A DNA stretch of 64,000 bases, taken from contig JBPOHV010000001.1 of the NCBI GenBank assembly GCA_052035175.1, positions 772,228 through 836,227 on the forward strand, given 5' to 3'. The stretch's first letter is position 1, and every line of letters begins with the position of its first letter. The translations under genes were made by a program, and so were the position numbers. Under the pieces are notes generated by a model that saw only the letters and a list, made by a program, of their open reading frames with translations, was not told the DNA's origin and did not search any database. Shown here piece by piece: positions 10,465-53,784 of this stretch. The DNA is from a candidate division WWE3 bacterium (GTDB taxonomy: Bacteria > Patescibacteriota > WWE3 > UBA101185 > UBA10185).

Positions 10465-10521
10465 AAGAAAATGATGACATCATGATCAATGCATGTCAAT
10501 ACATACATAAGACGAACATGT

Positions 10522-11409
10522 TTATAAAGTAGATTTATAAATAAGATAACAAAACTTTATCGTCGCATTAAATATGCGGCTAAATCTCCAAGGCTGAACA
10601 AACATCTTATACAACCACTCTAAACCACAATAAGATACAAATTGTGGCGGTGTCATATAATTACCTGACACATAATCAAGTGTGCCACCTATACCTACGC
10701 ATAACTTTGCTGGTATCTTGTCTGCATTTCTCAACACCCATTTTTCCTGATTAATGTGATTATAGGCCACTAGAAGTATGTCTACTTGCGAAGCTTCATT
10801 CTTTTGAAGACAGTCCTTAATATAGGCAATTGTCTTATCATCATCTGACTTTCTGAAACTAAAATCTGAAGTGGCACCTATTACATTTAAATTACTATAT
10901 TTGTTTTTTAGGATCTTACTAGCTTTAGAAGCAATATCACCACTTGTTAATGCCATTCTGCCAAAGCTATCTTTTTTCCAACCACCTAATAAAAAAATGT
11001 TATAGCCTTTTGATGCGGCATAAGCGCATAAGTCATATATTAGCTCTCTACCTAGTACTCTACTAGAGCTATTTCGGTATGTAGAAGAGAAAATGTAACT
11101 AAAGCCCAAAGATAACCCTATTAAACAAGCTTTTAATTTATATAGATTATCTTTTGGTAAATTTTTGACTTTAGCAAGATAGTCTTTGGCTAAAATTGGG
11201 CCAACACCGTCGGGAATAGAAAAATAGCAACTATTTATTATATTCATAAAATCACGATCTTCATACGCAGAAACTATAAATTCTGCATTTGTTGTACAAA
11301 TTAAAGTGTGAGTAGAAGATGATACAGCATAGTCTACTGCATGTAAGATATCTAACTTTGTCACACCAAAATCTATATTTACACCTAATATTTTTTCTTT
11401 TGTTATCAT
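10522..11409 (-). CDS. Glycosyltransferase family 26 (WecG/TagA/CpsF) with an N-terminal extension.
   Basis: The C-terminal part carries ...ILLVAYNHINQEKWVLRNADKIPAKLCVGIGGTLDYVSGNYMTPPQFVSYCGLEWLYKMFVQPWRFSR, including the GLEWLY(R/K) motif typical of WecG/TagA. Confidence 0.65.
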   Translation of the reverse strand: MITKEKILGVNIDFGVTKLDILHAVDYAVSSSTHTLICTTNAEFIVSAYEDRDFMNIINSCYFSIPDGVGPILAKDYLAKVKNLPKDNLYKLKACLIGLSLGFSYIFSSTYRNSSSRVLGRELIYDLCAYAASKGYNIFLLGGWKKDSFGRMALTSGDIASKASKILKNKYSNLNVIGATSDFSFRKSDDDKTIAYIKDCLQKNEASQVDILLVAYNHINQEKWVLRNADKIPAKLCVGIGGTLDYVSGNYMTPPQFVSYCGLEWLYKMFVQPWRFSRIFNATIKFCYLIYKSTL

Positions 11410-11411
11410 AA

Positions 11412-12437
11412 TTACCTAGTGATCATATTTTTTTCAAATAAATCAATATTATCCAAAGCAACACTCAGTCCACGGACAACACAATATAATGGATCATCTG
11501 AAGCATGAACTGGAACTCCTGCAAACTCAGAAATATATTTATCAAGATCGCGTAGCATAGATGTTCCCCCACTCAACACTATTCCTTTATCGATAATGTC
11601 AGAGGCTAGTTCAGGTGGTGTTTTTTCTAATACAGATTTTACAGCTAATGCAATCTGATTTACAGAATGATTGATAACATTTGCAATTTCATTTGAGGAA
11701 ATATTAATAGTTCTAGGAAACCCAGAAACTGAGTCTCTACCTTTTACTTCCATACTTAGTTCTTTCAACAAGGGTTTTGCACCCCCTACAGAAATTTTAA
11801 CCAATTCGGCTGTATTGTCACCTATTATCAAACCATACTTCCTTCTTATATAAGAGGATATATTGTCATCCAATGTATTACCACCTACGCGCACACTTCC
11901 ATGCACCACCATGCCATACAATGAAACAATTGCTATTTCAGTCGTCCCACCACCTATGTTTACTATCATGTTTCCGCTAGCTTCTGATATAGGTAACCCC
12001 GCACCAATAGCAGCAGCCAAAGGTTCTGGAATCAAATATGCATTTCGAGCTCCAGCAGAATACGCAGCTTCAAGTACAGCACGAGCTTCAACCGACGTCG
12101 CGCCTGCAGGTATTGATATCATTATGTCAGGCTTTATTATCCTATTTCTACCCAATACCTTATTTATAAAATGACGCAAAAGAGCCTCTGTAATAACATA
12201 ATCAGCTATAACACCGTTGCGTAATGGTTTTATCGATAAAATGTTGTCTGGAGTTTTACCAGACATTATTCTAGCGGCTTCACCTACAGCCAAAATCTTA
12301 TCTTCGTCTATAGAAACTGCCACAACAGTAGGCTCTATCAAAACAACCCCTTTACCAGAAACATAAACTACCGAGTTTGCGGTTCCCAGATCTATTGCAA
12401 TTTTTTTATGAAAATCAGATTTACTAAACATAAGCAA
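11412..12437 (-). CDS. mreB: Rod-shape-determining actin homologue MreB.
   Basis: IAIDLGTANSVVYVSGKGVVLIEPTVVAV...NGVIADYVITEALLRHFINKV, GGGTTEIAIVSLYG, ISEFAGVPVHASDDPLYCVVRG. Confidence 0.9.
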   Translation of the reverse strand: MLMFSKSDFHKKIAIDLGTANSVVYVSGKGVVLIEPTVVAVSIDEDKILAVGEAARIMSGKTPDNILSIKPLRNGVIADYVITEALLRHFINKVLGRNRIIKPDIMISIPAGATSVEARAVLEAAYSAGARNAYLIPEPLAAAIGAGLPISEASGNMIVNIGGGTTEIAIVSLYGMVVHGSVRVGGNTLDDNISSYIRRKYGLIIGDNTAELVKISVGGAKPLLKELSMEVKGRDSVSGFPRTINISSNEIANVINHSVNQIALAVKSVLEKTPPELASDIIDKGIVLSGGTSMLRDLDKYISEFAGVPVHASDDPLYCVVRGLSVALDNIDLFEKNMITR

Positions 12438-12521
12438 AACCTACAAAACACTATATATACAATTAGAATATACCATTCAGTGATCAACTTTGATAAAATG
12501 TCATTGTACCTATATTAACCA

Positions 12522-13673
12522 ATGAATAAAGATTTAATTAAAACATTTTTCAGGCTTTGTTTGCTTTTAGCTGTAACTACAACTCTATTTTTGTATGTTT
12601 ACGGAGTTAGAATCAATAAGCCAGCACAAGATCCTGTAAATCTTACACAAACTGGCATGGTAAGTGCAAAATCAATTCCTACAAGTGGCAGTGTTTATTT
12701 AGATGACAACTTGATGACTGCAACCGACGATACTATATCTGGAATAACACCAGGCATTCATAAAATTCGTATTATAAAAAATGGTTTTACTCAATGGGAA
12801 AAGCAAATAGAAGTGTTCCCAGAGCTAGTAACAGATATCACAGCAATATTAATAGCACAGAGTCCTAGACTAGAACCTCTAACTACAACAGGTGCGAAAA
12901 ATCCGGCTATATCACCTACTCTAACCAAACTAGCTTTCTTTTCGCAAGATTCAGAAAAACCCGGAGTCTGGGTAATCCCATTGACTCAAACAGGAATAAC
13001 ACTGTTTAAATCGAATCCAAATATAGTTTTGCTAGATACAAAATTAACAAAATATTCCGAAGGGCAAACAATCGAGTGGTCACCAGATGAAGAAGATCTG
13101 ATAATACAAGGACCCAATAATATTTATTATCTGGTAAATTTGGCTACTGGGGTTGCTGAAGCAATTGCAAACCCAGAACAAATAAAACAAGACTGGCAAA
13201 CAAAACTAACAGCAAAAAGACAAGATTTTATAAATAAACTTGATATACCCGACAATATCAAACAACTAGCTATATCAAAACAAGCAATCTGGTCACCCGA
13301 CGAAAAAAAGTTTTTATATACAAATCAAAATGGGGAAGATTTAGAATACAAAGTTTATAACTTAGAAAAACCTATACCAGTTGGTGAAAAGGTAGAAACC
13401 ACAGTATTCATAACAAAAACCAAAGCATTACAACCAGCTGTATCTTGGTATTCAGATAGCTTTCATTTAGTAATGGTAGAAGGAGACGTAACAAAAGACC
13501 AAAAGGGTCTTATTAGTCTTATTAGGATCGATGGAACAAATAAGACCGAGCTGTATAATAGCGTATTACACAGCAACAAAGTTTTTAGTACACCAAGCGG
13601 TGATAAGGTTATAATTTGGACATCTTTTAAATCAAATGATAAATCTGATTTGTACACTTTGAGTATTCGTTAA
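12522..13673 (+). CDS. PEGA-domain-containing secreted/membrane-anchored protein with a beta-rich C-terminal domain.
   Basis: N-terminal TM segment, then a PEGA-like module SVYLDDNLMTATDDTISGITPGIHKIRIIKNGFTQWEKQIEV. Confidence 0.5.
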   Translation: MNKDLIKTFFRLCLLLAVTTTLFLYVYGVRINKPAQDPVNLTQTGMVSAKSIPTSGSVYLDDNLMTATDDTISGITPGIHKIRIIKNGFTQWEKQIEVFPELVTDITAILIAQSPRLEPLTTTGAKNPAISPTLTKLAFFSQDSEKPGVWVIPLTQTGITLFKSNPNIVLLDTKLTKYSEGQTIEWSPDEEDLIIQGPNNIYYLVNLATGVAEAIANPEQIKQDWQTKLTAKRQDFINKLDIPDNIKQLAISKQAIWSPDEKKFLYTNQNGEDLEYKVYNLEKPIPVGEKVETTVFITKTKALQPAVSWYSDSFHLVMVEGDVTKDQKGLISLIRIDGTNKTELYNSVLHSNKVFSTPSGDKVIIWTSFKSNDKSDLYTLSIR

Positions 13674-13679
13674 ATCTAT

Positions 13680-14357
13680 TTAATGTACATCTATCAATTT
13701 TGCAGTAATTACTAACCTATTTATAACTGTACCTGGAGGATCACACGTTTGTAATGTTAAAGTAGGTTCAATAACTGGTCTCATTATCGGATAAGTATCC
13801 CAACCTTTTACGCGTTCTTTATTCAAAACTTCGTATACATATGTTTTATCCTCATAAAAAAGGTGTATTCTGTCTTTTATTTCAAGCTTGCGTAGTAGAT
13901 TAAATACTGTCGAGTATTGCCCCAATGAGAAAAAATTTAGCGAAGCATGCGCAAACAAATAAGTATTACCTGGTTCTTGAGAAGGATACTCAGAAATAGA
14001 AGCATGAGCGATACCTTGCTTGAGAGCCTCTGTGTATATCTTTTCATTCCAAACAGGTACATCTTTTACAATTGGTGCATTAACCCCAATTTTCTCAATA
14101 ACTATAGAAAAATCTGTGTTTACTGGGTTTATTTTGATTGGTTTAGTTGTAAGCAACTGGGCAAATGGGCTTTCTGCAGCACTACCCGAGTCAACAGAGT
14201 ATTCTTGATTCTTGAGCTGTTTTATATAAAACCACAACTCATCTTTTATCAAAGGTCCCCACGAAACTAACAAAAAAATAATACCTAATACTATTAGTGT
14301 ATTAGGTAAAAGCTTTTTCAAACGAGATAGTGATGGGATTTTGTTAAGTTTATGCAT
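13680..14357 (-). CDS. Sortase-family transpeptidase.
   Basis: N-terminal TM anchor, catalytic His context YLFAHAS, Cys in LTLQTCDP (the TLxTC motif), and Arg in RLVITAKL. Confidence 0.7.
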   Translation of the reverse strand: MHKLNKIPSLSRLKKLLPNTLIVLGIIFLLVSWGPLIKDELWFYIKQLKNQEYSVDSGSAAESPFAQLLTTKPIKINPVNTDFSIVIEKIGVNAPIVKDVPVWNEKIYTEALKQGIAHASISEYPSQEPGNTYLFAHASLNFFSLGQYSTVFNLLRKLEIKDRIHLFYEDKTYVYEVLNKERVKGWDTYPIMRPVIEPTLTLQTCDPPGTVINRLVITAKLIDVH

Positions 14358-25409: not shown

Positions 25410-26510
25410 CTATTTGATCAGCATTCTCTTGTTTGGGATATTTTCAATCGTATAAGTTTGAGATACTTCTTCAGTATTCAACACAACCAAAGGTAGATTC
25501 TGCATTTTTTCAGATAGTACATTTATTACATCTGTAAAACCCTCTCGCGTGTAGGCTGATATACCAAAGACTTCCTTTCCAATCTTTTTAAAAGCTTTTT
25601 TTATATTTGTAAAATCGTTGTTTATCTCTGGAATATCAATTTTATTTATCAAAATAATTTCGGGCTTATTCAATAAATCTACACTGTAATTATTTAGTTC
25701 ATGTCTTATTTTGTCATATTTGTCTAATGCCGATTTCACATAAGAATCTCCTGCTTCTAAAGAAGGATCTATCATATGCAAAAGAAGCCTAGTGCGCTCT
25801 ACATGACGTAAAAAATCAAATCCTAAACCCTTACCTTCAGATGCACCTTCAATCAAACCAGGAATATCAGCTAATACCAGTTTTTGATCCCCTTTTAGTA
25901 TCAAAATACCCAAGTTTGGCTCGATAGTTGTAAAAGGATAATTTGCTACTTTAGCACTCATGCTACACAGCGAATTTATCAAAGTAGTTTTGCCTGCATT
26001 TGGGAAGCCGATAATACCTATATCTGCGATGAGCTTTACTTCTAGCTTAATGTTAAACTCTTGGCCTTTCCCACCTTTTGTAGACTTCATAGGAGTACGA
26101 TTTGTTGAACTTTTGAATCTATAGTTACCCATACCACCACGACCTCCTTTTGCAATCAGTATGCGTTGACCAGGGGTATTTAAATCTGCAATTAAATGAT
26201 TTACAGTTTGGTCTGTATTCATCTCATAAACAAGAGTGCCAACTGGGACTTTTATAATTGTATCAACGGCATTTTTACCAAACATATTTTTGCCTTTACC
26301 ATGTTCTCCCGATTCTGCTTGTATCTTCTTTTTTGATTTAAAATCAAAAAGAGTATTCATGTTGTAATCTACTTCAAAATAAATGCTACCGCCGTTTCCA
26401 CCATCTCCACCATCAGGCCCTCCTTTTGGAATATATTTTTCTCGACGAAATGTTGCTACACCGTCTCCCCCATTACCTGCTTTAATTTTTATATATGCTA
26501 CGTCTACCAT
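25410..26510 (-). CDS. obg: GTPase Obg/CgtA.
   Basis: MVDVAYIKIKAGNGGDGVATFRREKYIPKGGPDGGDGGNGGSIYF (Obg fold) followed by a G domain (GFPNAGKTTLINSL). Confidence 0.9.
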   Translation of the reverse strand: MVDVAYIKIKAGNGGDGVATFRREKYIPKGGPDGGDGGNGGSIYFEVDYNMNTLFDFKSKKKIQAESGEHGKGKNMFGKNAVDTIIKVPVGTLVYEMNTDQTVNHLIADLNTPGQRILIAKGGRGGMGNYRFKSSTNRTPMKSTKGGKGQEFNIKLEVKLIADIGIIGFPNAGKTTLINSLCSMSAKVANYPFTTIEPNLGILILKGDQKLVLADIPGLIEGASEGKGLGFDFLRHVERTRLLLHMIDPSLEAGDSYVKSALDKYDKIRHELNNYSVDLLNKPEIILINKIDIPEINNDFTNIKKAFKKIGKEVFGISAYTREGFTDVINVLSEKMQNLPLVVLNTEEVSQTYTIENIPNKRMLIK

Positions 26511-26527
26511 AATTTTTTACCTTTGTG

Positions 26528-27748
26528 TTATTGCGTATAACCCAATGGATTTTGTACTACACCGTTATACTTAACAATAAAATGAACATGTGGACCTGTA
26601 GAGTTTCCTGTGCTTCCCATAAGACCAATTATTTGACCTCGGTTAACTTGCTCACCATATCCAACGTCCAATCTACTCATATGCCCATATACTGTCTCAT
26701 AACCATTACCATGGTCTATGCGTACATGCAAGCCCAATCCCCAAGGATCCCAACCTGCTCTAGTAACAACCCCGCCGGTACAAGCAAAAAGCGGTGGCAT
26801 TGCTTTACCCCATGGTGTGGCTACATCTATACCATTGTGATACCAAGTAAAGTACTGTGTAACAATACGTACAGTAGACGGCCAAACGCAGAAGCTTTTA
26901 CTTGGCTGAGCTTGAGCCAAATTACCACCCGAATTCACTGGAGTAAATGCAGGAACTGTAGGAATCACTCTTTCAGGAATACTTGCACCAGGTATGACTA
27001 ACTCAGTACCAACCGCAAGCCTTGAGACATCTAAAATATAGTTGAAGTCTGCAATAGCCTGAGGTGCAACATCATATTTTGCTGCAATCGAAGCCAAGTT
27101 ATCTCCTGTACCAACTTTATGAATAAGTCCAGATACTGGAGGTATTTGTAACTGTTGACCAATTTTTAGTATCGAATCGTCGGTCAAATTATTAACATAT
27201 AAAAGCGCATCTTTTGAGATTTTAAATTTTGTACCTATTCCAAAAACTGTATCGCCTACTTCAACAGTATAAGTAAAAGGCTCATTTCTTTTTCGATTTT
27301 CTGGTATATCCGTAGTTGCGATATATCTTTGTGGAATTATGTCGGAAACGTACGACACATAATCAGAAGGTATCTCCCTGGCATTCACAAATGAGGAAGC
27401 GCTAAACACTTTACCAAGCAAAAAGACAAAAAAACAAAAAGTCAAAACTACAGTAGGAGCAACCGTTTTACCCAATTTACCACGAGACCATATCAATTTA
27501 CGTACAATATAGTCTTTGGAGAATTTGGGAACAATGACAAATAGTAAAGTGAGTCTGTACAAAACTTTGACAAAATCATGTAGTTTTGATGATATGTACT
27601 TATAAAGATCTAGTACAAAATCAAAGAGTAAATAAAAAAAACCACGTAATTTACTCTCGCTTAATGGATTAAAACCATCGAAAACGACACGATAAAATCT
27701 ATGAGATAGCGGACTTTTTGTACTTGGGTTCATACTAAATAGCTCCAT
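26528..27748 (-). CDS. LysM-domain-containing M23 family metallopeptidase.
   Basis: Two LysM repeats (YTVEVGDTVFGIGTKF..., HKVGTGDNLASIAAKYDV...) and an M23 core HNGIDVATPWG...YGHMSRL...GSTGNSTGPHVHF. Confidence 0.8.
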   Translation of the reverse strand: MELFSMNPSTKSPLSHRFYRVVFDGFNPLSESKLRGFFYLLFDFVLDLYKYISSKLHDFVKVLYRLTLLFVIVPKFSKDYIVRKLIWSRGKLGKTVAPTVVLTFCFFVFLLGKVFSASSFVNAREIPSDYVSYVSDIIPQRYIATTDIPENRKRNEPFTYTVEVGDTVFGIGTKFKISKDALLYVNNLTDDSILKIGQQLQIPPVSGLIHKVGTGDNLASIAAKYDVAPQAIADFNYILDVSRLAVGTELVIPGASIPERVIPTVPAFTPVNSGGNLAQAQPSKSFCVWPSTVRIVTQYFTWYHNGIDVATPWGKAMPPLFACTGGVVTRAGWDPWGLGLHVRIDHGNGYETVYGHMSRLDVGYGEQVNRGQIIGLMGSTGNSTGPHVHFIVKYNGVVQNPLGYTQ

Positions 27749-27775
27749 TTTAGCAAAATATCAAGAATATTGCTC

Positions 27776-29161
27776 TTATGATGCCTTGTGTAGATTTGCC
27801 AAGAATTCTTTATTTGTCTTAAACTGTCGTAATCTACCCAATACAAGCTCTGTAGCTTCACGATCATCTAATAAGTCGACCATGCGTCTAAGTTTAAAGA
27901 TTTGTTCCAACACTTCTCTAGAGAACAACTGTTCTTCATGACGTGTGCTGCTACTCTTGATATCTATTGCAGGGTAAATTCTTCTATCTGCCAATACTCT
28001 ATCCAAACGTAACTCCATGTTACCTGTACCCTTAAACTCTTCAAAAATAACATCATCCATTTTGGAACCTGTATCTACAAGTGCTGTAGCTATAATAGTC
28101 AAACTACCTTGTGTTTCAAAGTTTCTTGCAGCACCAAAATAGTGCTTGGCTGGATACAATGCAGAAGGGTCAAAACCTCCGGACAAAGTGCGGCCTGATG
28201 GTTGAACTACCATATTGTAAGCACGCGCAAGTCTTGTAAGAGAGTCCATAAGAATTACTACATCTTTGCCTTGTTCAGCCATACGCTTTGCTCTTTCTAA
28301 ACAAACTTCGGCTACTCTAGTCTGCTCCATAGCTTCTTCGTCAAAATTGCTGGCGTAAACAGTACCTTTTATGCTTCTTTGAATATGCGTGACTTCTTCC
28401 GGACGCTCTCCAATCAAAGCAACTAGTAATTCTGTGTCAGGGTAATTTGTTGTTATTCCATTTGCAATTTCTAGTAAAAGCCATGTCTTTCCTGCTTTTG
28501 GAGGAGCGACAACCATAGCTCTTTGACCTTTACCAATAGGAGAAATGAGATCTATCAGCCTGGTAGATAAAATATCTTGTTTAGTTTCTAAATGCATCCA
28601 TTCGTTTGGAAATACAGGAACTAAGTCGACAAATCTTGGGCGTCTTTTTGCTAATTCTGGATCCATACCTTCGACAGTTTCTACACGCAACAAAGATAAA
28701 TAAACTTCTCCTTCTTTTGGAGGTCTTGCCATACCTTCAATCATGTCGCCTTTTCTTAGACTAAACCGTTTTATTTGAGAAGGGCTAATATATACATCAC
28801 GTGGTAAACCATCTTCTACTTGCTCTGGCTGTCGTATAACACCGTAGTTAGGCAATATTTCCAAAATACCTTTTATAGGTACTACGTCACCTTGATATTT
28901 ATCCATAGGTGCTGATTTATTGTTGTTATAGTTATTATAGTTTCCATTATTATGGTTGTTGGCACTATAGTTGGAATTAGATGAATGATAGTTTGGATTG
29001 CGATATGTATTTGTTGATTGGGTTGGCGTTGGTTTTGGCGTAACAACGGGTGAATCGTCTGTAGTACTTGGTTGTACTACTAAATCTGGTTGAGATGCGT
29101 CTGCTACTACTGGAACATCATCTGTGTTTGATACTGAACTAGCTTTTTTTCTCACTGGCAT
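27776..29161 (-). CDS. rho: Transcription termination factor Rho, with an Asn/Tyr-rich low-complexity N-terminal insertion.
   Basis: The RecA-like core [18 protein letters not shown]...LIGERPEEV...[16 protein letters not shown] is preceded by [30 protein letters not shown]. Confidence 0.9.
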
Positions 29162-29238: not shown

Positions 29239-29889
29239 TCAACCTATCAATTCGGCTGTTACCAACAAACGTTTACTGTAAGTTTTGGATTTTAGATCCC
29301 ATACACCGCCACAAGTTATCAATATCAACTGAGGCTTTGTAGTAGATTTATTTATTATATGTAATCTGTTGGGGTCATTTAAATCCACATAAGAAGAACC
29401 AACTACTATATAAGTATAAGTTCTTCCATACTTATCAGACACTTCTACTTTATCACCGAGGTCTAGATTTTTCAACGCCCAAAATGCTGCTGGCCCACCC
29501 CAAGTATTATCGTAATGAGCAGGTATTATCAAGTTACCCGGTTCACCTGCTTTTGCTCCATATATAAAATATCCGACATCATTCCAACCTTTTGGGGCTT
29601 CCATAACGCCGTCTTGCGAAACACCGACATCGACTAGCTCTTTTGAGATTATTTCTAGCTTTTCAATAGTAATATTTACTGGTTTTTCGTAAATGGGTTT
29701 TAATAGTTCTACAAAAGCAGAAGCATCTGATTCAGCAGCTAACGTGTCAGACTGATTTACAGTTGGATTAGCATCTTTATTTAAAATAAAAAAAAGTGAA
29801 AGTACTGTAACTGCAACCACAACGATGAACAACAACCATCTAATCAAAAATGCTAACTTTGAATTTGAATCTAAAAATAAATATCCCAT
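29239..29889 (-). CDS. Sortase (class-F-like).
   Basis: N-terminal TM segment, IIPAHYD (His), LILITCGG (Cys; TLxTC motif), RLLVTAEL (Arg). Confidence 0.75.
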   Translation of the reverse strand: MGYLFLDSNSKLAFLIRWLLFIVVVAVTVLSLFFILNKDANPTVNQSDTLAAESDASAFVELLKPIYEKPVNITIEKLEIISKELVDVGVSQDGVMEAPKGWNDVGYFIYGAKAGEPGNLIIPAHYDNTWGGPAAFWALKNLDLGDKVEVSDKYGRTYTYIVVGSSYVDLNDPNRLHIINKSTTKPQLILITCGGVWDLKSKTYSKRLLVTAELIG

Positions 29890-29989
29890 AAATAGCCTTA
29901 AGAAAAATTTAGGTCATATACAGAGTGGTCGAGTAAGTACTAAGACAAACCCAACCATTCTATACATGACCCAAAGGTTATGTATGTGT

Positions 29990-30019
29990 ATGCCCCGCCT
30001 GCCTACGCAGGCGGGGCAT
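29990..30019. repeat. Perfect GC-rich palindrome/hairpin (13-bp stem) between the LPETG-protein gene and the sortase gene.
   Basis: atgccccgcctgc-ctac-gcaggcggggcat. There is no adjacent T-tract, so it may act as an RNA stabiliser or terminator, or be REP-like. Confidence 0.6.
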
Positions 30020-30033
30020 CACGCTAAATAGTC

Positions 30034-30675
30034 TTATCTACGAGACTTAATAAAAGCGCCTAAAGAAGTTAATCCTAAGCCTAATATTGATAATGCATCA
30101 GTATATCCAGTTTCTGGAAGCTCAGTTACGTCTACGTCACCGTAACAAACTGTGGCTGTATCAGAACCTTCGAAGTCATCGTCATAAAAGACTTGAGCTT
30201 CGTTGACAATACATTTCTCAAAGTCACCATCTCTGTCGAATTCATCGGCATCGATTTTAGCTTTGATTATGAACTCTCTATCCTCACCAGGAGCGAAATC
30301 ATCCCAGTATTCGGTAAGTCCATCACCGCCTACTCTTTCCATTTCGTCTGGAAGAATATCTTTCATTTTCATATTGTCAAAATCAGGAACGTCATCAGAA
30401 GGAGTTCCATCAGGTACATTAGTGTTGTTGGTTATAGTAACCTTAAACTCTACTGTATCGTCGGCTTCTACACCGCTGACTTTATCTTTCCAACTATCAT
30501 TACCTTCTATTCTTACTTTTTTCTCAATTGTAAAACTTTTATTTATGATGCAGGTTTCTCCCCCACCATAGTTGGGTTCACAATCGTTATCTGCATAAGC
30601 AGTACCATTTGATACAGCTAAAACAGAAGCAGAAAGTAAGGCAACTGCTATTAATTTTTGTATGTTTTTTAACAT
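30034..30675 (-). CDS. Secreted cell-surface protein with a C-terminal LPETG sortase sorting signal.
   Basis: Signal peptide MLKNIQKLIAVALLSASVLAVSNGTAYA. The C-terminus is ...VTELPETGYTDALSILGLGLTSLGAFIKSRR (LPxTG, hydrophobic helix, then a positively charged tail). Adjacent to the sortase at 29239..29889. Confidence 0.8.
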   Translation of the reverse strand: MLKNIQKLIAVALLSASVLAVSNGTAYADNDCEPNYGGGETCIINKSFTIEKKVRIEGNDSWKDKVSGVEADDTVEFKVTITNNTNVPDGTPSDDVPDFDNMKMKDILPDEMERVGGDGLTEYWDDFAPGEDREFIIKAKIDADEFDRDGDFEKCIVNEAQVFYDDDFEGSDTATVCYGDVDVTELPETGYTDALSILGLGLTSLGAFIKSRR

Positions 30676-30975
30676 AAGCCTTTCTTTTTGCCCTATTCGA
30701 CACTTATAAGCAGACCTTTTATGAAGGAATACCTACAAATATTGAAGTTTGGCAGGGTAAATAAATAACGATACTAAAGAAAAGGATAGCTTTTATACTA
30801 TCTTTATTCTAAGTACGGGGGTAATAATAACCTATAATACAGTATTTGTCAACTGCTATGGGGTAGTTAATATGGAAAGCATGAGATGACTTATAGGGTA
30901 AACATGTCCGAAACACTAAAAGCGCACCCTCAGCCTACTTTTTGCTGTTACACGGCCTTTTGTAAGCTAGTATCA

Positions 30976-34645: not shown

Positions 34646-35752
34646 TTACGGCGTCCAAATATATGGATCAAGAATAGTTCCGTCAGCCAGAACCTTCACG
34701 ATCCATGTATGGACACCACCTTGACCTGCAGCCCAGATATCAATCTGGGCGTCCCCGGCTATTTGCGTTGTTCCGCATGCCCACATTGGGGCAGTCTGCG
34801 GGGCATCTGGGCCAGGAACTTGGGTAAAGTGGAAAACTAAATCCACTTCGGAAACCACGACAAAAGTATCGTTCTGCGGTATGGCTACAGCCATCGTCGC
34901 AGATTCGATAATTGCCGAGTCTCCAGACCCAATAAGGCCTGGCCAACCCTCGGCCCAAAGGCGCGCTTCTGGATCTGGAGAATCCCAGAACCAGATGACG
35001 CCCTCTGGCTGAGGGCCACAATGATTTTCCTCGTACGGCACGGCCGTAGGAGAAGGTGTCATAGTAGGAGTTGGCGTGACCGTCGGGGACGGAGTCCCTG
35101 TGGGTGTCACAGGATCCGTCGGAGTCGACGTCACGGTTGGGCTGGGCGTGGCGGTCGGGCCATTGTACACCTCAACGGTGTACGCCCCATCCGCTGACAC
35201 GCGGATAACCCAATACTCCATCCCCTGATTTTGCCAACCAGAAGTCAGTTCTGCGATTTTGGACTCTGGCATATCGCCCTGAGTCCCACAACCGTAGATG
35301 TTAGCGAAACCCGACCCGCCCAGCGGGACATTGCTAAAGGACAGCGGAAGTTTCGAAATAAACAGCGTTGGAACGCTGATCGAAACTTGTTGCCCAGCAA
35401 TAATCCACAAAGATGGATCTACCGTAACCCAAAGCCCATTTCCTTCAGGCAAAATAACTGCCCAAGGATTCGAGGTGTCACCATCAACGATGGGACCACC
35501 TTGCTCATCCTGCCCGCATGGGCCTTGGATGAAGGGTTCGAGGGTGGCAGTGGGCGTTGCAGTCGGTTCCGGAATGCCTTCTCCATTTGCCACAAAGGGC
35601 AAATAGGAAAGCAGGTTCAACGGAAGAGCCTCCGTAGGGGTCGGGCTAACCCGATCCGCTACATTGTTGGCCAGCGCCTGAAACGGCGCGACCAATAAAG
35701 AAAAAACAAAAAAGGCCGCGATGGCCAACGATAAGAAACGATTAAGTTTCAC
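34646..35752 (-). CDS. Secreted protein with a Pro/Thr-rich linker, encoded in a GC-rich (about 57%) compositional island.
   Basis: GTG start, with AAGGAG 9 nt upstream. Signal peptide MKLNRFLSLAIAAFFVFSLLVAPFQALA. Linker PTATPSPTVTSTPTDPVTPTGTPSPTVTPTPTMTPSPTAVP. Codon usage and GC content are sharply different from the flanking sequence. Confidence 0.65.
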   Translation of the reverse strand: MKLNRFLSLAIAAFFVFSLLVAPFQALANNVADRVSPTPTEALPLNLLSYLPFVANGEGIPEPTATPTATLEPFIQGPCGQDEQGGPIVDGDTSNPWAVILPEGNGLWVTVDPSLWIIAGQQVSISVPTLFISKLPLSFSNVPLGGSGFANIYGCGTQGDMPESKIAELTSGWQNQGMEYWVIRVSADGAYTVEVYNGPTATPSPTVTSTPTDPVTPTGTPSPTVTPTPTMTPSPTAVPYEENHCGPQPEGVIWFWDSPDPEARLWAEGWPGLIGSGDSAIIESATMAVAIPQNDTFVVVSEVDLVFHFTQVPGPDAPQTAPMWACGTTQIAGDAQIDIWAAGQGGVHTWIVKVLADGTILDPYIWTP

Positions 35753-35885
35753 TTCGAAAACTCCTTTACTAATACTACATTTGGGTGCGATTTATGGTAT
35801 GAATTATATCATTACTATAGGTCTTATGTCAACCTACGATATGACAACAAAAGGAAAAAAGGCATATGAGATGTATCTGAAATGC

Positions 35886-37487
35886 TTAGATAATAAATCT
35901 CGAACTAAGGCTCCAAAAAGCCATAAAAAGCGCACCAAGGAGCACAAAAAGCACATAAAACAGCTTTGTAGGTAACTTTTTGCTTTCCAAAAGCATAGCC
36001 AAATATACAAACAAACTCAGACCAAAAAAGCTATATTTCAAAACCCCAGAAAGTCCCCCATTGACCAGACCAATTGTCAAAAAGCAACTCAACAAAGCAT
36101 AAAACATATTTTGCGTATCTTGATTTAATTTATCTTTTAATCTAGTAATTCCAAAAAAACTTAAGCCTGCTAGCAAAATTGCACTTAGTGTTTCAAACAG
36201 CGCATATTTGTCAAAATGCACAAAGTAATTGAATAATCCGCCTACAAAAGAAGTGCCATCACCATACCAAGGTTTGCGCGCGTTATAAATAACCAACCAA
36301 TCACCAGTTTGCGAATACAAAGCATACAGATACATAAACAAAGTCAGCAAAACTATTGAAACAATCAACAAATACTTCTCTCGTTTATCTTTGAGCATAA
36401 AATATAAAGGAATCAAAACTAATAATCCATAAATATTTGTATAAACCAGCAAAGACAATAAAAATCCGCTCAATACACTACTCTTCTTTGCATAAAAAAG
36501 AGTCATAAATAAAAGCATGTTAAAAATGGAAACGCTCAAAAATGCAAAATTAAAAAAAGAAAAAGGAAATAAAATATATAAAATAGTAGATTTCCAGGCT
36601 AAACTTTCGTCGAAATAAACTTGCAATAATTTATATAAATAAAACGCCGAAACTATAAAACAAACTAGCGAAATTAGTATTCCAGACACAACTACATCCA
36701 AACTACTTAATGAAACAAATTTGGCGAGATTGGAATATAAAGGCATAAATGCATAAACAGTAAACTGCTTTTCGTATGAAATTTGAGGAACTTCGACCAA
36801 ATTATCTTTAGAAATGACTCTACAACCATCACCTCTATATTCCAAATCTGGCATACCGTTTGGACGCGTGCTACCAAAGGTAGGTTGAGGCTGTTCAGGT
36901 GATATTTTTGAGAAAGATTCTTGATATACAACATTATTATCATAAGCAGAATAATAAGTTACAAACGCAGTATCACACGCGCTATCGCCACAAGCTGTAG
37001 GATTGGTAATACCTTCGTTTGCAATTTTTACATCGCGGTCATAATCAATAGGGCCAGTAAACTCACAATAACCAATACCTTCATAACCATTATAAATAGG
37101 CACAGTTACTCTTTCGCCTCTTTTACCTATCAAAAATAATGTGTTATTAACTTTTTGTGTAAATAGCGTGTGAGGCAAAGCAAATTTCTTTTCGCCTACT
37201 AAACCAGAACCCAAAAATACTTTTACCCAACCGTCTGCAGGTATATCTATGTTGGCAACAGTTATTTTTTGATCAAGCTTGGGATACCCTTTTTCAGCTA
37301 TATCATAATAAAATCCGCTATCCCAAGACGTCCAAGCATTTACAAATGTATACGGGCTTGTATATGTCCACGATGGGAATGGTTTGGAAGTATCTAGTAA
37401 AGTTGTGCGCGCAAAAACTCCAACCAGTGTATATACGACAAATAACCCAAGTATTAATAATGTTAATTGGCTGAGTTTTTTGGGCAT
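35886..37487 (-). CDS. GT-C-fold membrane glycosyltransferase-like protein (PIG-V/DUF2029-like WD..Y.IA..GY motif).
   Basis: 533 aa. N-terminal TM segment, WDSGFYYDIAEKGY motif, C-terminal domain of about 10 TM helices. Confidence 0.4.
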   Translation of the reverse strand: MPKKLSQLTLLILGLFVVYTLVGVFARTTLLDTSKPFPSWTYTSPYTFVNAWTSWDSGFYYDIAEKGYPKLDQKITVANIDIPADGWVKVFLGSGLVGEKKFALPHTLFTQKVNNTLFLIGKRGERVTVPIYNGYEGIGYCEFTGPIDYDRDVKIANEGITNPTACGDSACDTAFVTYYSAYDNNVVYQESFSKISPEQPQPTFGSTRPNGMPDLEYRGDGCRVISKDNLVEVPQISYEKQFTVYAFMPLYSNLAKFVSLSSLDVVVSGILISLVCFIVSAFYLYKLLQVYFDESLAWKSTILYILFPFSFFNFAFLSVSIFNMLLFMTLFYAKKSSVLSGFLLSLLVYTNIYGLLVLIPLYFMLKDKREKYLLIVSIVLLTLFMYLYALYSQTGDWLVIYNARKPWYGDGTSFVGGLFNYFVHFDKYALFETLSAILLAGLSFFGITRLKDKLNQDTQNMFYALLSCFLTIGLVNGGLSGVLKYSFFGLSLFVYLAMLLESKKLPTKLFYVLFVLLGALFMAFWSLSSRFII

Positions 37488-37499
37488 ATATAAATGATA

Positions 37500-39638
37500 C
37501 TATCGACTCCCCCCATACTCAATAAATAATTCGTCTTTTAAAGAATATTCATCAGAATAATATGGAATTACTTTTAATTTTTTCATTACTTTTTGCAAAC
37601 CTGTGCCTTCAAAATCTGCTTGTGTATATTTTGTCTGTGTGAGTTTTGTTATATCAGAGCCATTTACTTGAGTATGGATTAAGTTTTGACATCTTCCGTC
37701 TCGGCAAGATTGTCTTTCATCGGTTTGTATAGACATATCCAACAAAGCTGAAGATATTTCTTTTTGAATTTTTAGTTTTGTACCTAATCTGTGACAATAC
37801 GAGAACCCTGTTTTTGGTAAATCATTTATTATTACTTCTTTAGGGTAAACTTCGTAATTGTTAATTTCCAAGATGTGTAGAGTTTCGGGTAAATAAGGTT
37901 GTTTAATGCTTTGATAATTATAATGGCCTGTAAATAGTATAAGTGACGCCAACGGCTCTATTGTAAATTTAAATTCTCCTGTAGAAGTCTTCTCTACTCC
38001 GCAAGTATTGACCTTCACAGGCACATCAAAGTCTTTGCGCTTATAAGTTGTAATATCGTTTGCTTCATTTTCAAATACTTGTAGTTTGTCAAACCACACA
38101 GCGCTTCTATATTTCATAAATTCTGTAGCTTGCATAAGTGCTGCATAATTGCGTAAACCTGTAGGACCAGGATTTTCTGGTGCTAATACATAAGAGACAT
38201 TTTTGTCGCGTAAGAATTTGACTATTTCGTAATCAGATTTAAATGGTTCAAATTGATAATAAGGTACTGGCATATACACTTTGTCTAGCATCATTTGTTC
38301 TCGCAACATTTCTAGACCTGCTGCTGATACTTTTTCATAATCAACAAGTGGTGTAATGCCTACGGCTTGAGTGTCAGAAAAGACTGCATCGGCCATAATG
38401 TTGTTAAATATTTCTTTCATTGGTGGTTTATATGGTCTATATGAGTACAAATCTGGTCTTATCTCAAAATACTCATACATCGGACCTGTAAGTAGAATCC
38501 CCCACGCTGTTGATTCTGTTGAATGTGCTTTTATATGATTGAAACAAGTAAAAACAAATATAAACAATGTAAATGCAACGATAAAAATGCGCAATTTCTT
38601 TTGTTTTATAATATCCAAAACATAAGCAGTGAGAATCGCTAAGGGTAAACTGAGTACAAATAAGTACCTTTGATTTTTATTTTGAATAAGGCTGAATAGA
38701 AAGTAGACTAAAAACAAATGTGCAAATAACAAAAGCGCTGTGCGTCTGTCTTTTTTATAAAAATGAAACCCACCAAACAATGCACATACAAATGGCACTA
38801 AATACATTTGATAAACCAACAACCCTTTGATGTAATGGCCAAAGTTTTCGATAGATAATAGCTTTTTTGGATCATCGGCTTCACCTACTGCATATAACGA
38901 GCTCAAAATGCGCATTTCTTGAAAATTTAATATATACCAAGGCAAAGCTATAACGATAAACATAAGTGATCCGAGCAAAATAGGCTTGATCATATTTTTT
39001 ATTTGACCGTGCTTATAGCCTGTATATAAAACATAAAGTACTGGTACTACAAGAAACAAAAATCCATACCATTTGATCAATTGAGTCAATGCAAATGTAA
39101 TAAAAAATAAAAATGTAAATTTTGAATTAGTAAAATATTTGGATTTAAATAAAAAGTGGTAACACAAAAGCACAAACAAAGTGAGCGGGATTTCTAGATG
39201 AAATACTCTAGATTGATCCCCTACTAAAGGCGATAACGAATAAAAAAATGTACTATAAAACGCTAATTTTTCTGAATACCCTAGATTTATTATTAATTTA
39301 TAAAATAAAACAATCGTTCCCAAAAACATCGAAAATATAAAACCAAGTTGTAATACAAAGTGATAACCAAATATGAGATTAAATACTGCCATTATCAAAT
39401 GGATCAGTGGTGGGTAATAATTGGATTGTGTGGCTATGTCATAAAGAGTTACGCTGCCCCCACCAAAGTATTCTTTGAACATATCTGCGAATCTCATAGA
39501 AAGCGCCATATGGCCTGCGCTATCCCATGTCTGGTACGACTTATCCAAAAGCCTAAATACTACGTATACGAGTGTGTGAAATATAAGAAGTAGATAAAGA
39601 TATTTGTGATATTTGGAACTCGGCAGCAAAACTTTCAT
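37500..39638 (-). CDS. GT-C-fold (ArnT/PMT-like) polytopic membrane glycosyltransferase-like protein with a C-terminal soluble domain.
   Basis: 712 aa. About 11 TM helices in the first 380 aa, then a soluble domain. Confidence 0.4.
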   Translation of the reverse strand: MKVLLPSSKYHKYLYLLLIFHTLVYVVFRLLDKSYQTWDSAGHMALSMRFADMFKEYFGGGSVTLYDIATQSNYYPPLIHLIMAVFNLIFGYHFVLQLGFIFSMFLGTIVLFYKLIINLGYSEKLAFYSTFFYSLSPLVGDQSRVFHLEIPLTLFVLLCYHFLFKSKYFTNSKFTFLFFITFALTQLIKWYGFLFLVVPVLYVLYTGYKHGQIKNMIKPILLGSLMFIVIALPWYILNFQEMRILSSLYAVGEADDPKKLLSIENFGHYIKGLLVYQMYLVPFVCALFGGFHFYKKDRRTALLLFAHLFLVYFLFSLIQNKNQRYLFVLSLPLAILTAYVLDIIKQKKLRIFIVAFTLFIFVFTCFNHIKAHSTESTAWGILLTGPMYEYFEIRPDLYSYRPYKPPMKEIFNNIMADAVFSDTQAVGITPLVDYEKVSAAGLEMLREQMMLDKVYMPVPYYQFEPFKSDYEIVKFLRDKNVSYVLAPENPGPTGLRNYAALMQATEFMKYRSAVWFDKLQVFENEANDITTYKRKDFDVPVKVNTCGVEKTSTGEFKFTIEPLASLILFTGHYNYQSIKQPYLPETLHILEINNYEVYPKEVIINDLPKTGFSYCHRLGTKLKIQKEISSALLDMSIQTDERQSCRDGRCQNLIHTQVNGSDITKLTQTKYTQADFEGTGLQKVMKKLKVIPYYSDEYSLKDELFIEYGGSR

Positions 39639-43474: not shown

Positions 43475-43978
43475 CTAATTCTTACCTATACTTTGTTGCC
43501 TTATTACAGGTATATAATTTAATGCTTGAGTGTGAATCTTCAATTTCTTTTCTGAGTCTTTTATATCTTTAAGACACTCCGCAGATTTTAAAATAGCTTC
43601 ATCAGAGGTAAGTGCATCTTGTCTAAATGTAGCGAGGTCAGCTTTACTCTTTTCTAAAAGTTCTGAGTAATAAGTTTGCAACATAGTAATTATTCTTTCG
43701 GCACCTATAGCTGGCGACGATATACTCATAGTTTCTGTAGGAGAACGAAACTTTTGATTGAACAATGAAGCAAAAGCGTCATAATCAGCAGTCAACTCAT
43801 CGACTCGCCTATCTTGTACTTCTGGAAGATCACCAGATTCTCTAACAAAGTCAACCAAACCCTCCATACACATACGCGCGTCGATAAATGATTGTGAAAA
43901 TGCTTCTTTATCTGGTATTTCTGTATTTCGAGGAATTTCATTATGAGGAAAGTCTAGTGTTGTTAATGTGTTATGCAT
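43475..43978 (-). CDS. Hypothetical protein (167 aa).
   Basis: ORF with tight spacing (17 nt and 37 nt) to its neighbours on the same strand. Confidence 0.45.
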   Translation of the reverse strand: MHNTLTTLDFPHNEIPRNTEIPDKEAFSQSFIDARMCMEGLVDFVRESGDLPEVQDRRVDELTADYDAFASLFNQKFRSPTETMSISSPAIGAERIITMLQTYYSELLEKSKADLATFRQDALTSDEAILKSAECLKDIKDSEKKLKIHTQALNYIPVIRQQSIGKN

Positions 43979-43995: not shown

Positions 43996-46059
43996 TCAAA
44001 GTACATCCGCCATTTTTAGTGCTGCATGATATACAACTGGCTTTTGACGGACTTCTTGTGTTACTTTATCGACAACTTTTACATAAGTTACCTCTGGTAA
44101 GTTAGCAGATCGACGCAAAGCGTTTACTTCTACCAAATCCCAACCTTGCTCGTCTGAGGCCAACATATATTGGCTCGCGTGCGCTCTCTCACCAACACCA
44201 AGCCTACGTAGATGCCCAGCTCTTGTAAAAGCTATCAAAGTGTCTTCTTCTTCTTTAGTTTTTTTCCCTCTTCCATAATTAATATTTAGATCTGTGGCTT
44301 CATTGCATGTAATTTCAGCTAAATGTGCTAAAACCATAACTTCAAACCAATTAGTATTATCATTGTATGCACCATATCTAGACATATCTTTACGAGTTTG
44401 TGGATCTAATAGTTTCTTATGTTTATCTAATAAAAGTCGTATTGTGCATTTACCTACGGCTACATCTACAATATATTCAGATTTAGTTTTGCCATTAAAT
44501 TTATAAGTTATTGATGAATAACCCAGACCACGTAAGCTTTGATCCCCTATCTCGCATTGCGTGCCACGAGGACTTATAGATCTACGAAAGTCAATTTTCA
44601 AACGATTTGCAACTTTACCTTTTTTTTCTACTAAATCTGTTGGTAATGATTCGGGTGACAACCAATTTATACATGTCGCGACTTCGGCACTTTTCAACAC
44701 AGGATTATCAGTTTGCCTTTCGAGATTTGCAAGTACAAGGCCTCTAAAATATCCGTGTTGTTCTTCGGGGTGTAACTTTTTATCTGGTACATGTATAACA
44801 GTAGGTTCACCAGGCAAAGTCAAAAAAACATGAGCATTCAAACCTTTTTGCCTAGAAAATCTCCCATAGTCTGCATATATCATTTCCCTAAGAGAGCCAA
44901 TATTTGTAGATATAACATTATATGGAAAAACATTTCTTTCTTCATCTGGAATTTCTGTAAGCGCTGTCGAGTCTTCGTCACCATAAAATAATGCTAAAGC
45001 AGCAAGGCGGCGTTCAAGTACAGCGCGTTGCCTACGATCTGAAATTGTATCTAGAAGGTTACGTGCGTGTATTTCTTTTGATAACATGCCTATCGTTTTA
45101 ATATTTCCAGATGGGTTACTAGAATCATCAAATGCAAGGGTGTCTGGGTGCACGAGACTAAACTTTTCTGAATTTAAGCGCTGTGCAACTAAGGGTTGTA
45201 ATGTCTTAATAATATAATTATAAGCTGGATCAGCGTCTAGCATTTTTGTGACTGCCTTTTTACGCTTGTTTCTCCACTCATTATGGTTATCTGGTGTATA
45301 TAACTTTCCATACCAATCACAAAATAATTCGACTTCGGAATATTTTTTAAAAATCTCATCATTAGCAGATAGAAAACCATTAGCAAAATTTAATCTATAA
45401 GCATTTGCAGAATTACCAATCGTTATATCGCTATTACTACACAATATATTCAATACATATGCAATCTTTGCAGCGTCACCGTCGTCCAAACCCACTTCTG
45501 CTAATAAATAAGATGTCTCTACTACGTGTTTAGTTTGTTCTATCTGATTACCTTTTGGCTCACGCGAAAGTAAACCTTTCAAAATCGCATGGCTATATTT
45601 AGAATGCAATGAGTTTGCTGTAGCAGATGTGATTAAATCTAAAGCTCTTTCTTGTGTAAGAGGTAAGCTTTGCAAACTACTCTTTTCTGCAACACGTAAC
45701 AAAGAATTATGTATAGAACTACGCATGCTATTAATTAATTTTGATGTTTCCGGATTTAATTGGGCAATTTCTTCTAAATTTCTAAAAACCCCAGGCAAAA
45801 GTTGGGAATTATTAATTAATGTTGTAGATACTGAGTTAGTAACTGCCTCCATACGAGCTTTATCACCCAAAGCCGCACTATAATCTGCACATAAATTGGT
45901 CGTCAATAAATATGCCTGTTGATCTAAGCTACTATCGTCGTTAAAAACGGATTCATTTGAGGACATGGGCATACCTGCATAAGCATTACCTTTAGTTCCG
46001 CGGTTTTTACCTTTTAATTTTTCTTCTTCTGGAAAATAAGGGATATCTTCAAAGTGCAT
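43996..46059 (-). CDS. Hypothetical large protein (687 aa).
   Basis: Long ORF. No family recognised. Immediately downstream of the small RHH gene. Confidence 0.5.
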   Translation of the reverse strand: MHFEDIPYFPEEEKLKGKNRGTKGNAYAGMPMSSNESVFNDDSSLDQQAYLLTTNLCADYSAALGDKARMEAVTNSVSTTLINNSQLLPGVFRNLEEIAQLNPETSKLINSMRSSIHNSLLRVAEKSSLQSLPLTQERALDLITSATANSLHSKYSHAILKGLLSREPKGNQIEQTKHVVETSYLLAEVGLDDGDAAKIAYVLNILCSNSDITIGNSANAYRLNFANGFLSANDEIFKKYSEVELFCDWYGKLYTPDNHNEWRNKRKKAVTKMLDADPAYNYIIKTLQPLVAQRLNSEKFSLVHPDTLAFDDSSNPSGNIKTIGMLSKEIHARNLLDTISDRRQRAVLERRLAALALFYGDEDSTALTEIPDEERNVFPYNVISTNIGSLREMIYADYGRFSRQKGLNAHVFLTLPGEPTVIHVPDKKLHPEEQHGYFRGLVLANLERQTDNPVLKSAEVATCINWLSPESLPTDLVEKKGKVANRLKIDFRRSISPRGTQCEIGDQSLRGLGYSSITYKFNGKTKSEYIVDVAVGKCTIRLLLDKHKKLLDPQTRKDMSRYGAYNDNTNWFEVMVLAHLAEITCNEATDLNINYGRGKKTKEEEDTLIAFTRAGHLRRLGVGERAHASQYMLASDEQGWDLVEVNALRRSANLPEVTYVKVVDKVTQEVRQKPVVYHAALKMADVL

Positions 46060-53567: not shown

Positions 53568-53577
53568 TTTGGTAACA

Positions 53578-53715: not shown

Positions 53716-53784
53716 TATTACCAATAAAGTGTGCTCATTTTGAAATAAACACACTAAAAACTGAATAGAAGACTGTAGTTAGAA

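Follow-up and report, generated by a model that had tools for sequence, protein, structure and literature searches.

A conserved sortase–substrate locus of candidate division WWE3 holds a one-repeat CLIPPER/DUF11-type protein and a structured RNA between its genes

Which protein does a sortase of a candidate phyla radiation (CPR) bacterium anchor, and what accompanies the two genes when they stand side by side? The question is raised by a locus in 64,000 nucleotides of a candidate division WWE3 (Patescibacteria) bacterium (GenBank assembly GCA_052035175.1, contig JBPOHV010000001.1, positions 772,228 through 836,227; herein the window, G+C 37.5%). Here a gene for a 213-aa protein that bears a sorting signal at its C terminus (herein the substrate) is followed by a gene for a sortase (herein the adjacent sortase). 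An earlier note, made from the letters of the window, had drawn attention to this pair; both open reading frames (ORFs) lie on the minus strand where it placed them, and every peptide that it quoted is present. We find that the sortase–substrate pair is a core locus of WWE3 and that a conserved 68-nt RNA hairpin, which falls inside the region the note had marked and went unmentioned there, lies in the spacer between the two genes. The features are collected in Table 1.

The substrate comprises a signal peptide (approximately residues 1 through 28), a loop between Cys32 and Cys42 that reads CEPNYGGGETC, an immunoglobulin (Ig) domain (approximately residues 44 through 182), the LPETG motif (residues 186 through 190), a hydrophobic helix, and a KSRR tail. 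Read directly, its N terminus shows a basic n-region (K3, K7), a hydrophobic core (LIAVALLSASVLAV), and AYA before the mature part, a pattern that is conserved in the family alignment and bears out the signal peptide named by the earlier note; it is predicted to be a Sec signal peptide, with cleavage expected after AYA. At the other end, VTELPETGYTDALSILGLGLTSLGAFIKSRR forms the extreme C terminus of the ORF. LPETG is followed by YTDALSILGLGLTSLGAFI (19 hydrophobic residues), KSRR, and the stop codon, which is the textbook sorting signal that had been claimed; the helix is modeled at residues 193 through 212, and Thr189 and Gly190 are expected to flank the scissile bond. Across 70 related loci the sorting motif reads LPKTG (33), LPETG (27), LPDTG (5), or another LPxTG (5), and Glu nearly always stands before it (ELPxTG in 68 of the 70 proteins). 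A search for other LPxTG-type C termini, which the note had proposed for the genome, was run as a six-frame scan of the window; it returned one convincing LPXTG signal, that of the substrate.

Between these signals lies a single, diverged domain of the CLIPPER/DUF11 type, folded like the domains of pilins and adhesin stalks. CLIPPER is the new name of DUF11, a CnaA-like stalk domain of fibrillar adhesins with a Lys-Asn isopeptide bond and a catalytic Asp (PMC12617251). The substrate has a CnaA-like fold that superposes on the solved CLIPPER domain. In sequence, the DUF11 relationship that the note had suggested checking holds at the level of the family: 27 of 40 aligned members match DUF11 (best E = 3.4e-8), 16 of the 40 match PF00746 (Gram_pos_anchor) at E ≤0.01, and several homologs are annotated as PF01345, PF24346, or PF00746 or as “LPXTG-motif cell wall-anchored protein”. 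It is through these matches and annotations that the window protein, itself below threshold, is assigned to CLIPPER/DUF11. The homologs number 282, nearly all of 200 to 230 aa. When 1.84 billion representatives were searched exhaustively with HMMER, 56 clusters were found at E ≤1e-30 and 373 at E ≤1e-10; most are full-length matches of ∼210 aa, and some have the module at the end of a longer protein.

The pattern of conservation suggests how the domain is stabilized. In the alignment of 40 family sequences K52, D106, N158, and K65 are invariant, K46 is conserved in at least 90%, and the cysteine pairs C32/C42 and C155/C177 and the L-P-x-T-G motif are invariant or nearly so. K52 sits within an I-x-K-x-V motif, as in canonical DUF11 repeats, and N158 within N-x-A-x-V (compare N-T-A-C-V of the canonical repeats); profile-profile comparison aligns D106 with the catalytic Asp position of those repeats. 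In the hhalign comparison of the family with the canonical repeats the central part alone was aligned (residues 23 through 100). Sequence searches of the Protein Data Bank (PDB) with the substrate, the family profile, and a six-repeat relative gave no match, and the isopeptide residues could therefore not be mapped onto the CLIPPER structure 9IFR by sequence. Judged from the conserved residues, a Lys52-Asn158 isopeptide bond with Asp106 as the catalytic residue is likely in the substrate, and two disulfides probably also stabilize the domain.

Longer relatives place this domain in a known architecture. Proteins of 1100 to 1359 aa carry six DUF11 repeats and end in the domain of the window protein followed by LPETG; because they end in the same domain, the window protein is a one-repeat version of a fibrillar adhesin. 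These long, fibrillar-adhesin-like proteins also carry DUF7507, DUF7619, and DUF7927 domains and occur in some related genomes, and tandem paralogs of 374 and 443 aa occur in others (L071:3172-6471 and L074:2398-6474; L054:3991-6531).

The adjacent gene encodes a genuine sortase, as had been proposed. Its product scores 64.9 bits against Pfam Sortase PF04203 (E = 7.6e-18; gathering score 26.6); both it and the product of a second ORF in the window, 13680..14357, match PF04203 (MEROPS C60) above the gathering threshold. The peptides IIPAHYD, LILITCGG, and RLLVTAEL are all found in the 216-aa ORF and hold the triad: in an alignment of 15 sortases (the adjacent sortase, 13 relatives, and the second sortase of the window) His125 and Cys193 are invariant and Arg207 is at least 90% conserved, and the catalytic residues of the second sortase fall in the same columns. 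The AlphaFold (AF2) model (predicted local distance difference test, pLDDT, 85.1) shows a helix at residues 11 through 37, a low-confidence linker, and the sortase β-barrel, with the catalytic domain spanning residues 69 through 216. Residues 11 through 37 are hydrophobic, and in this model they form the N-terminal membrane helix by which the enzyme is predicted to be anchored, its catalytic domain facing the outside of the cell. With this model Foldseek matched solved sortases of every class at E-values of 1e-8 to 1e-6 (best 9.5e-9).

The class assignment is one of likeness. Among the NCBIfam models class F (NF033748) is the top class for the adjacent sortase (86.2 bits, E = 1.7e-24), and all other classes reach at most 28.8 bits (class E 28.8, GN 26.9, D 19 to 20), but the class F score stays below the curated cutoff of 166 bits; “class-F-like” therefore denotes resemblance only, in which sense the label of the earlier note is right, and by the curated rule the enzyme is not a member of class F. 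The class C model gave no match at E ≤0.1, and a DP[FWY] lid motif was not found ahead of the catalytic domain. The sole named homolog is a Frankia class F sortase (32% identity); the family of the adjacent sortase has 25 matches, with 35 to 50% identity among relatives. A scan of the window with the family hidden Markov models recovered exactly two sortases and one CLIPPER-like ORF of the substrate type. Transpeptidase activity of the adjacent sortase on LPETG is predicted from the triad and the family match.

Comparison of related genomes shows that the two genes belong together. In 60 of the 70 related loci the substrate gene is followed by the sortase gene on the same strand with no gene between, at 65 to 250 nt and with substrate identity of 38 to 61% across loci, and the order there is large membrane protein, substrate, sortase, rho, LysM/M23 peptidase, obg; the last three genes and the sortase gene form a conserved block. 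Because the same order recurs in these 60 loci, the pairing is not due to chance. Three or four of the 10 exceptions are contig ends, and the rest are paralogs or loci with rho directly after the substrate gene. The substrate-then-sortase order also holds in 55 of 68 metagenome contigs that were found via the RNA motif alone and extend far enough downstream. Two distant substrate homologs of 210 aa (E ∼1e-20 to 1e-28) have neither an adjacent sortase nor the hairpin; tight pairing is therefore a property of the WWE3-type family only.

Taken together, these data make it probable that the locus is a dedicated sortase/substrate unit in which the sortase anchors a minimal adhesin-stalk protein of one repeat to the wall. 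The steps follow established sortase biology. Sec would export the 213-aa protein, whose signal peptide would be removed after AYA, and the C-terminal helix with its KSRR tail would retain it in the membrane. Cys193 of the membrane-anchored sortase, encoded 144 nt downstream, would then attack LPET|G, and a peptidoglycan-precursor amine would resolve the acyl-enzyme, leaving the substrate covalently on the wall. Displayed in this way would be a single CLIPPER/DUF11-type Ig domain, a one-repeat counterpart of a fibrillar-adhesin stalk, with the highly conserved disulfide-closed N-terminal loop as its outward tip. A near-consensus promoter would drive the substrate gene, and a variable GC hairpin followed by the 68-nt hairpin would separate it from the sortase-rho-M23-obg genes. 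Such a protein may serve adhesion and, as the earlier note had suggested, the attachment of an epibiont.

Several results weigh against this account. The substrate of the window scores 14.0 bits against the TIGR01167 anchor model (cutoff 15.9) and 14.9 bits against DUF11 PF01345 (gathering score 24.6), and the adjacent sortase falls short of curated class F. MAFFT paired Cys155, not Asn158, with the canonical repeat, which leaves the Asn partner of the predicted bond unsettled. At least six loci without an adjacent sortase (L068, L079, L087, L107, L124, and L138) retain the substrate, LPxTG, and the hairpin, and the adjacent enzyme is therefore not indispensable. Functions throughout the two families are predicted rather than taken from biochemistry, and the physiological role and substrates of actinobacterial class F sortases are themselves unknown (PMC13251363). 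Finally, a T-run (at least four T within 9 nt) follows 24 of 49 aligned 68-nt hairpins, whose three closing pairs are U-A; with a T-run after only about half of them, a role as a simple terminator is doubtful.

The loci that lack the adjacent sortase also speak for an alternative, which we consider unlikely, in which conserved position reflects synteny more than function: the second sortase would be the housekeeping anchor of the substrate and other LPXTG proteins, and the adjacent sortase would be redundant or have another target. The second sortase is the better conserved and more widespread of the two (60 to 67% identity across relatives and 1429 homologs, against 35 to 50% and 25 matches). 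These small genomes moreover keep their gene order as a rule (rho, M23, obg, argS, ndk), so that conserved adjacency alone is weak evidence. Set against this are the co-orientation and short spacing of the two genes in 60 of 70 loci despite the divergence of the substrate, and the finding of no further candidate substrate near either sortase in the window. Sortases that adjoin a single LPXTG gene are, besides, usually cognate to it, as in classes B, C, and D.

The surroundings of the second sortase are of a different kind. Its best NCBIfam scores are 40.4 bits (class D), 39.5 bits (class C), and ∼31 bits (class E), those for D and C far under their cutoffs, and it is left unclassified. It lies convergent with a gene for a PEGA-domain protein, and the arrangement of these two genes, followed by mreB and a TagA/WecG-type transferase gene (tagA/wecG), is conserved in three independent contigs, which puts the second sortase in a cell-shape and wall-polymer neighborhood. 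The PEGA protein lacks a sorting signal at its C terminus and is encoded on the opposite strand; the neighborhood noted earlier is thus real and conserved, and a functional link between the two proteins is not shown by it. Loci L080 through L083 conserve the block that occupies 9547..14357 of the window, comprising the second sortase and PEGA genes, mreB, the tagA/wecG-type transferase gene, and a helix-turn-helix protein gene.

A further alternative, slightly less likely than the one from synteny, makes the locus a minimal fiber. The adjacent class-F-like sortase would polymerize the one-domain protein head to tail, linking Thr189 of one subunit to Lys46 of the next, at the N-terminal end of the domain, or to the invariant Lys65, and the second sortase would anchor the product to the wall; in Gram-positive pili the work is divided in a like manner, between sortases specific for pilins and housekeeping ones. 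Two sortases in the genome, one co-oriented with the structural gene and the other elsewhere, speak for such a system, and a strong substrate promoter with RNA-structure insulation from the enzyme gene is expected of a subunit made in large excess. The pilin-like fold agrees with it, and conservation of Lys46 and Lys65 is otherwise unexplained. However, the YPK pilin motif (WxxxVxVYPK) and the E-box are not found in the substrate, where W62-x-D-K65 resembles the former loosely; the adjacent sortase is class-F-like rather than class C and has no lid; and tip or basal (accessory) pilin genes are absent from the locus, whose neighbors are the membrane protein gene and rho. The substrate gene encodes a single domain, and to our knowledge shaft pilins have at least two. 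Several lineages retain the substrate without the adjacent sortase, and the same domain closes ordinary multi-repeat fibrillar adhesins. As each specific mark of a pilus that was looked for proved absent, the fiber is rated low, and the pilus anchoring that the earlier note had raised as a possibility is not borne out. A fuller version, marginally less probable again, casts the substrate as a CLIPPER “mini-pilin” polymerized through lysine by the class-F-like sortase and anchored by the second, with the hairpin setting the subunit-to-enzyme ratio. Were it true, class F-type sortases would gain their first physiological role, and CPR bacteria would have a covalent pilus of the Gram-positive type, made from the smallest known subunit.

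We return to wall anchoring by a dedicated pair, and to the RNA that lies between its genes. The 144-nt spacer folds as two hairpins (−75.9 kcal/mol, z = −10.3). The one nearer the sortase gene, of 68 nt, combines a lower stem of 24 bp with an invariant apical module, UGGGUUUG ... CUUAC[G/U]CG, that includes a UU/UU internal loop. In the window the hairpin's base lies 18 nt ahead of the sortase ATG; across loci the distance from its 3' base to the sortase start has a median of 22 nt and is often only 5 to 12 nt. It always lies 3' of the substrate gene, and 5' of the sortase gene wherever the adjacent sortase is present. The window has one occurrence of the core pattern, where 0.01 would be expected, and 62 of 79 loci each have exactly one; a covariance model finds the hairpin in loci that the pattern missed; in all, it is present once per locus in ∼130 related contigs. 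Loci that lack the adjacent sortase keep it at 74 to 80 bits, and it was not found at second-sortase loci or beside the distant substrate homologs.

Covariation supports the fold. For an alignment of 49 sequences RNAalifold predicts 28 pairs, 19 of which show compensatory double changes. Of the cells, 95.8% are paired, a share that falls to 38 to 50% if the 3' partner is shifted by one, two, or three columns; double-change cells number 184 against 45 ± 6 in shuffles, and none of 500 shuffles reaches the observed values. A context-blind scan of metagenomes with the core pattern returned 75 contigs, 66 of them in a substrate-hairpin-sortase or substrate-hairpin-rho context; the nine matches outside the locus context were set aside as weak, pattern-only hits of at most 22 bits. 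Rfam 15 (4227 families) holds no match at gathering scores, its E-value mode returned noise only (e.g., miRNA and snoRNA models at 15 to 25 bits), and a literature search on WWE3 RNA motifs found nothing relevant.

The strand on which the element acts can be read from its substitutions. The alignment holds 203 G-U/U-G cells and 15 A-C/C-A cells, so that pairing works only on the gene-sense strand, and the covariance model scores the window hairpin at 79.4 bits in sense and 38.4 bits in antisense; from this asymmetry and these scores the element acts as gene-sense RNA and not as a DNA palindrome. IS200-like Y1 transposases, a family that recognizes DNA hairpins, are encoded twice in the window and the element is an inverted repeat, but the idea that it acts as DNA, as a palindromic operator or the remnant of a mobile-element end, was rejected on the G-U asymmetry and is very improbable, the more so as the element is present in one copy per locus at a fixed place over deep divergence, with no second copy in the window.

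We conclude with good confidence that the 68-nt hairpin is a genuine cis-acting RNA, specific to its lineage and not described before. A plain terminator does not explain the invariant apical module with its UU/UU internal loop, and a terminator scan of the window called neither spacer hairpin. Our best guess is that the element lets an abundant structural protein be expressed independently of the enzyme genes downstream; it could do so by attenuation, by RNase III-type cleavage of the ∼28-pair helix, or by masking the sortase start site, and its apex is possibly recognized by a protein.

Other signals flank the substrate gene. The second hairpin of the spacer, a perfect 13-bp stem, begins 14 nt past the substrate stop codon and has no U-run; many related loci have a different, non-homologous GC hairpin at its position, and it is a terminator-like or 3'-stabilizer structure. 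Upstream, the promoter matches 11 of 12 consensus positions, and across 60 non-identical loci TTGACAA recurs in 39 upstream regions and CCCATAG in 31. A motif of the 5' untranslated region (UTR) that contains CCTGCCA, present in 31 of the 60 and once in the window, was considered as a long-range pairing partner of the hairpin; this was rejected, with complementarity of 7.1 for cognate and 6.9 for non-cognate combinations and no covariation.

The gene directly upstream of the substrate gene encodes a polytopic membrane protein with zero Pfam or NCBIfam matches, and in many WWE3 loci the substrate gene is likewise preceded by a membrane protein of ∼1100 aa without a family match. Beyond it, 34646..39638 (minus strand) encodes two unannotated proteins and a PMT/PMT_2-like (GT-C) glycosyltransferase (37500..39638); PMT-like glycosyltransferases are often found upstream of the substrate gene in related loci, and this region may be an envelope glycosylation cluster. 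On the downstream side, the Rho protein (27776..29161, minus strand) has a long, Asn-rich, low-complexity N-terminal extension ahead of its RNA-binding domain.

Elsewhere in the window, the rRNA genes are spread over 53145..62279. In order, the region contains the 16S gene (60837..62279, minus strand), a gene resembling folD (59291..60061), the gene of an IS200-like Y1 transposase (58784..59227), tRNA-Ile on the opposite, plus strand (58706..58782), a 375-aa ORF without a family, tRNA-Ala, the 23S gene (53793..56856; 3064 nt against a 2925-nt model), the 5S gene, and a second Y1 transposase gene (53145..53567, plus strand). Most genes of the window have no Shine-Dalgarno sequence despite a canonical CCUCCU at the 16S 3' end, and a TATAAT-like box lies 7 to 12 nt before many starts (e.g., 8546..9367, 13680..14357, 43475..43978, 43996..46059, and 57500..58627), which suggests that leaderless or very short-leader mRNAs are frequent. 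An Rfam L10 leader (7418..7543, plus strand, 64.1 bits) upstream of ORF 7536..8054 is an ordinary ribosomal-protein leader.

Table 1. Coordinates of the sortase–substrate locus and associated features in the window
Feature	Position	Strand	Basis or detail
Substrate gene, 213 aa	30034..30675	-	ORF list and direct reading
LPETG pentapeptide, codons 186-190	30106..30120	-	Direct reading
Sortase gene (adjacent sortase), 216 aa	29239..29889	-	PF04203 match, triad
68-nt RNA hairpin	29908..29975	-	Substrate-sortase spacer; covariation, pattern, and covariance-model evidence
GC-rich perfect 13-bp hairpin	29990..30019	-	AUGCCCCGCCUGC GUAG GCAGGCGGGGCAU
Conserved 5'-UTR motif CCCUGCCAAA	30748..30757	-	Recurrence upstream of substrate genes
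Promoter-like region of the substrate gene	30824..30862	-	CCCATAG box, TTGACA, 17 nt, TATTAT
Polytopic membrane protein, 1174 aa	30976..34500	-	Directly upstream of the substrate gene, same strand
Co-oriented, tightly packed downstream block	25410..29161	-	
rho (downstream block)	27776..29161	-	
LysM/M23 peptidase gene (downstream block)	26528..27748	-	
obg (downstream block)	25410..26510	-	
Second sortase gene, 225 aa	13680..14357	-	PF04203 65.6 bits; LTLQTCDP
PEGA-domain protein with TolB-like β-propeller region	12522..13673	+	PEGA 32.7 bits

Compared with known systems, the sortase pair is ordinary in kind, and the RNA element is the new part. Sortases are documented and widespread in CPR bacteria (PMC6744442, PMC4736985, PMC7143001), and DUF11/CLIPPER proteins with LPXTG signals are known as well (PMC12617251), which makes the pair itself one of a known kind. 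For the adjacent sortase the nearest counterparts are the class F enzymes (NF033748; SrtF of Cutibacterium acnes, SrtF paralogs of Streptomyces and Actinoplanes), its best-scoring class; the C. acnes enzyme shares with it the His-Cys-Arg triad, the N-terminal membrane anchor, and an LPXTG-type signal (PMC8225981). Unlike them, it reaches about half of the curated cutoff, comes from Patescibacteria rather than Actinomycetota, and is paired one-to-one with a single substrate. The substrate differs from described CLIPPER proteins (PF01345; 9IFR, PMC12617251), in which the domain forms tandem arrays, in having one domain only. It also has a 7-residue insertion with W-x-D-K and the family-specific N-terminal Cys loop, and its isopeptide bond is a prediction.

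Sortase-assembled pili (BcpA/SrtD of Bacillus cereus, SpaA/SrtA of Corynebacterium diphtheriae) likewise set a pilin-like Ig protein with an LPXTG signal beside a sortase, with a second sortase elsewhere, but the present locus has no pilin motif, E-box, class C sortase or lid, or accessory pilins, and its structural protein is a single domain. Closer in layout are the dedicated pairs, SrtB-IsdC and the class GN “marine” sortase, in which one sortase stands beside one cognate protein and the housekeeping sortase is encoded elsewhere. Those systems use the deviant motifs NPQTN and LP[QK]T[AS]T; the motif here is canonical LPxTG, so that the specificity for the motif does not by itself show whether the adjacent or the second sortase acts. 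The Pam pili of CPR bacteria are also built of CPR-specific Ig-fold surface proteins, and the pilins there are put together through donor-strand exchange and membrane-anchored chaperones, with no sortase involved (bioRxiv 10.64898/2026.03.03.709456). A link of the locus to these pili was rejected on that ground.

The 68-nt hairpin can be set beside the intercistronic hairpins of operons, the RNase III sites and the terminators or attenuators, with which it shares a long, near-perfect helix of ∼28 pairs between a structural gene and an enzyme gene. The helix is long enough for RNase III. Neither of these roles calls for the invariant apical module and the UU/UU loop that set it apart from those elements.

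In the literature and databases searched, a class-F-like sortase that is paired one-to-one, throughout a lineage, with a CLIPPER protein of a single repeat appears not to have been described, the fixed place of the pair before rho and the structured RNA between its genes likewise appear undescribed, and the literature gave no account of what the sortases of CPR/Patescibacteria anchor. Against this background a reduced genome offers a one-to-one candidate sortase–substrate pair with an enzyme that resembles a class without a settled role (PMC13251363). The substrate, a single-domain protein of 160 residues, should express easily and gives a tractable entry to CPR envelope biology; the pair is possibly informative on how CPR cells contact other cells, and a natural, minimal CLIPPER domain would be useful for studies of isopeptide-stabilized folds. 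The hairpin covaries strongly and has a defined place, with a surface-protein gene on one side and the sortase and rho genes on the other, which makes it a clear candidate for a new RNA family.

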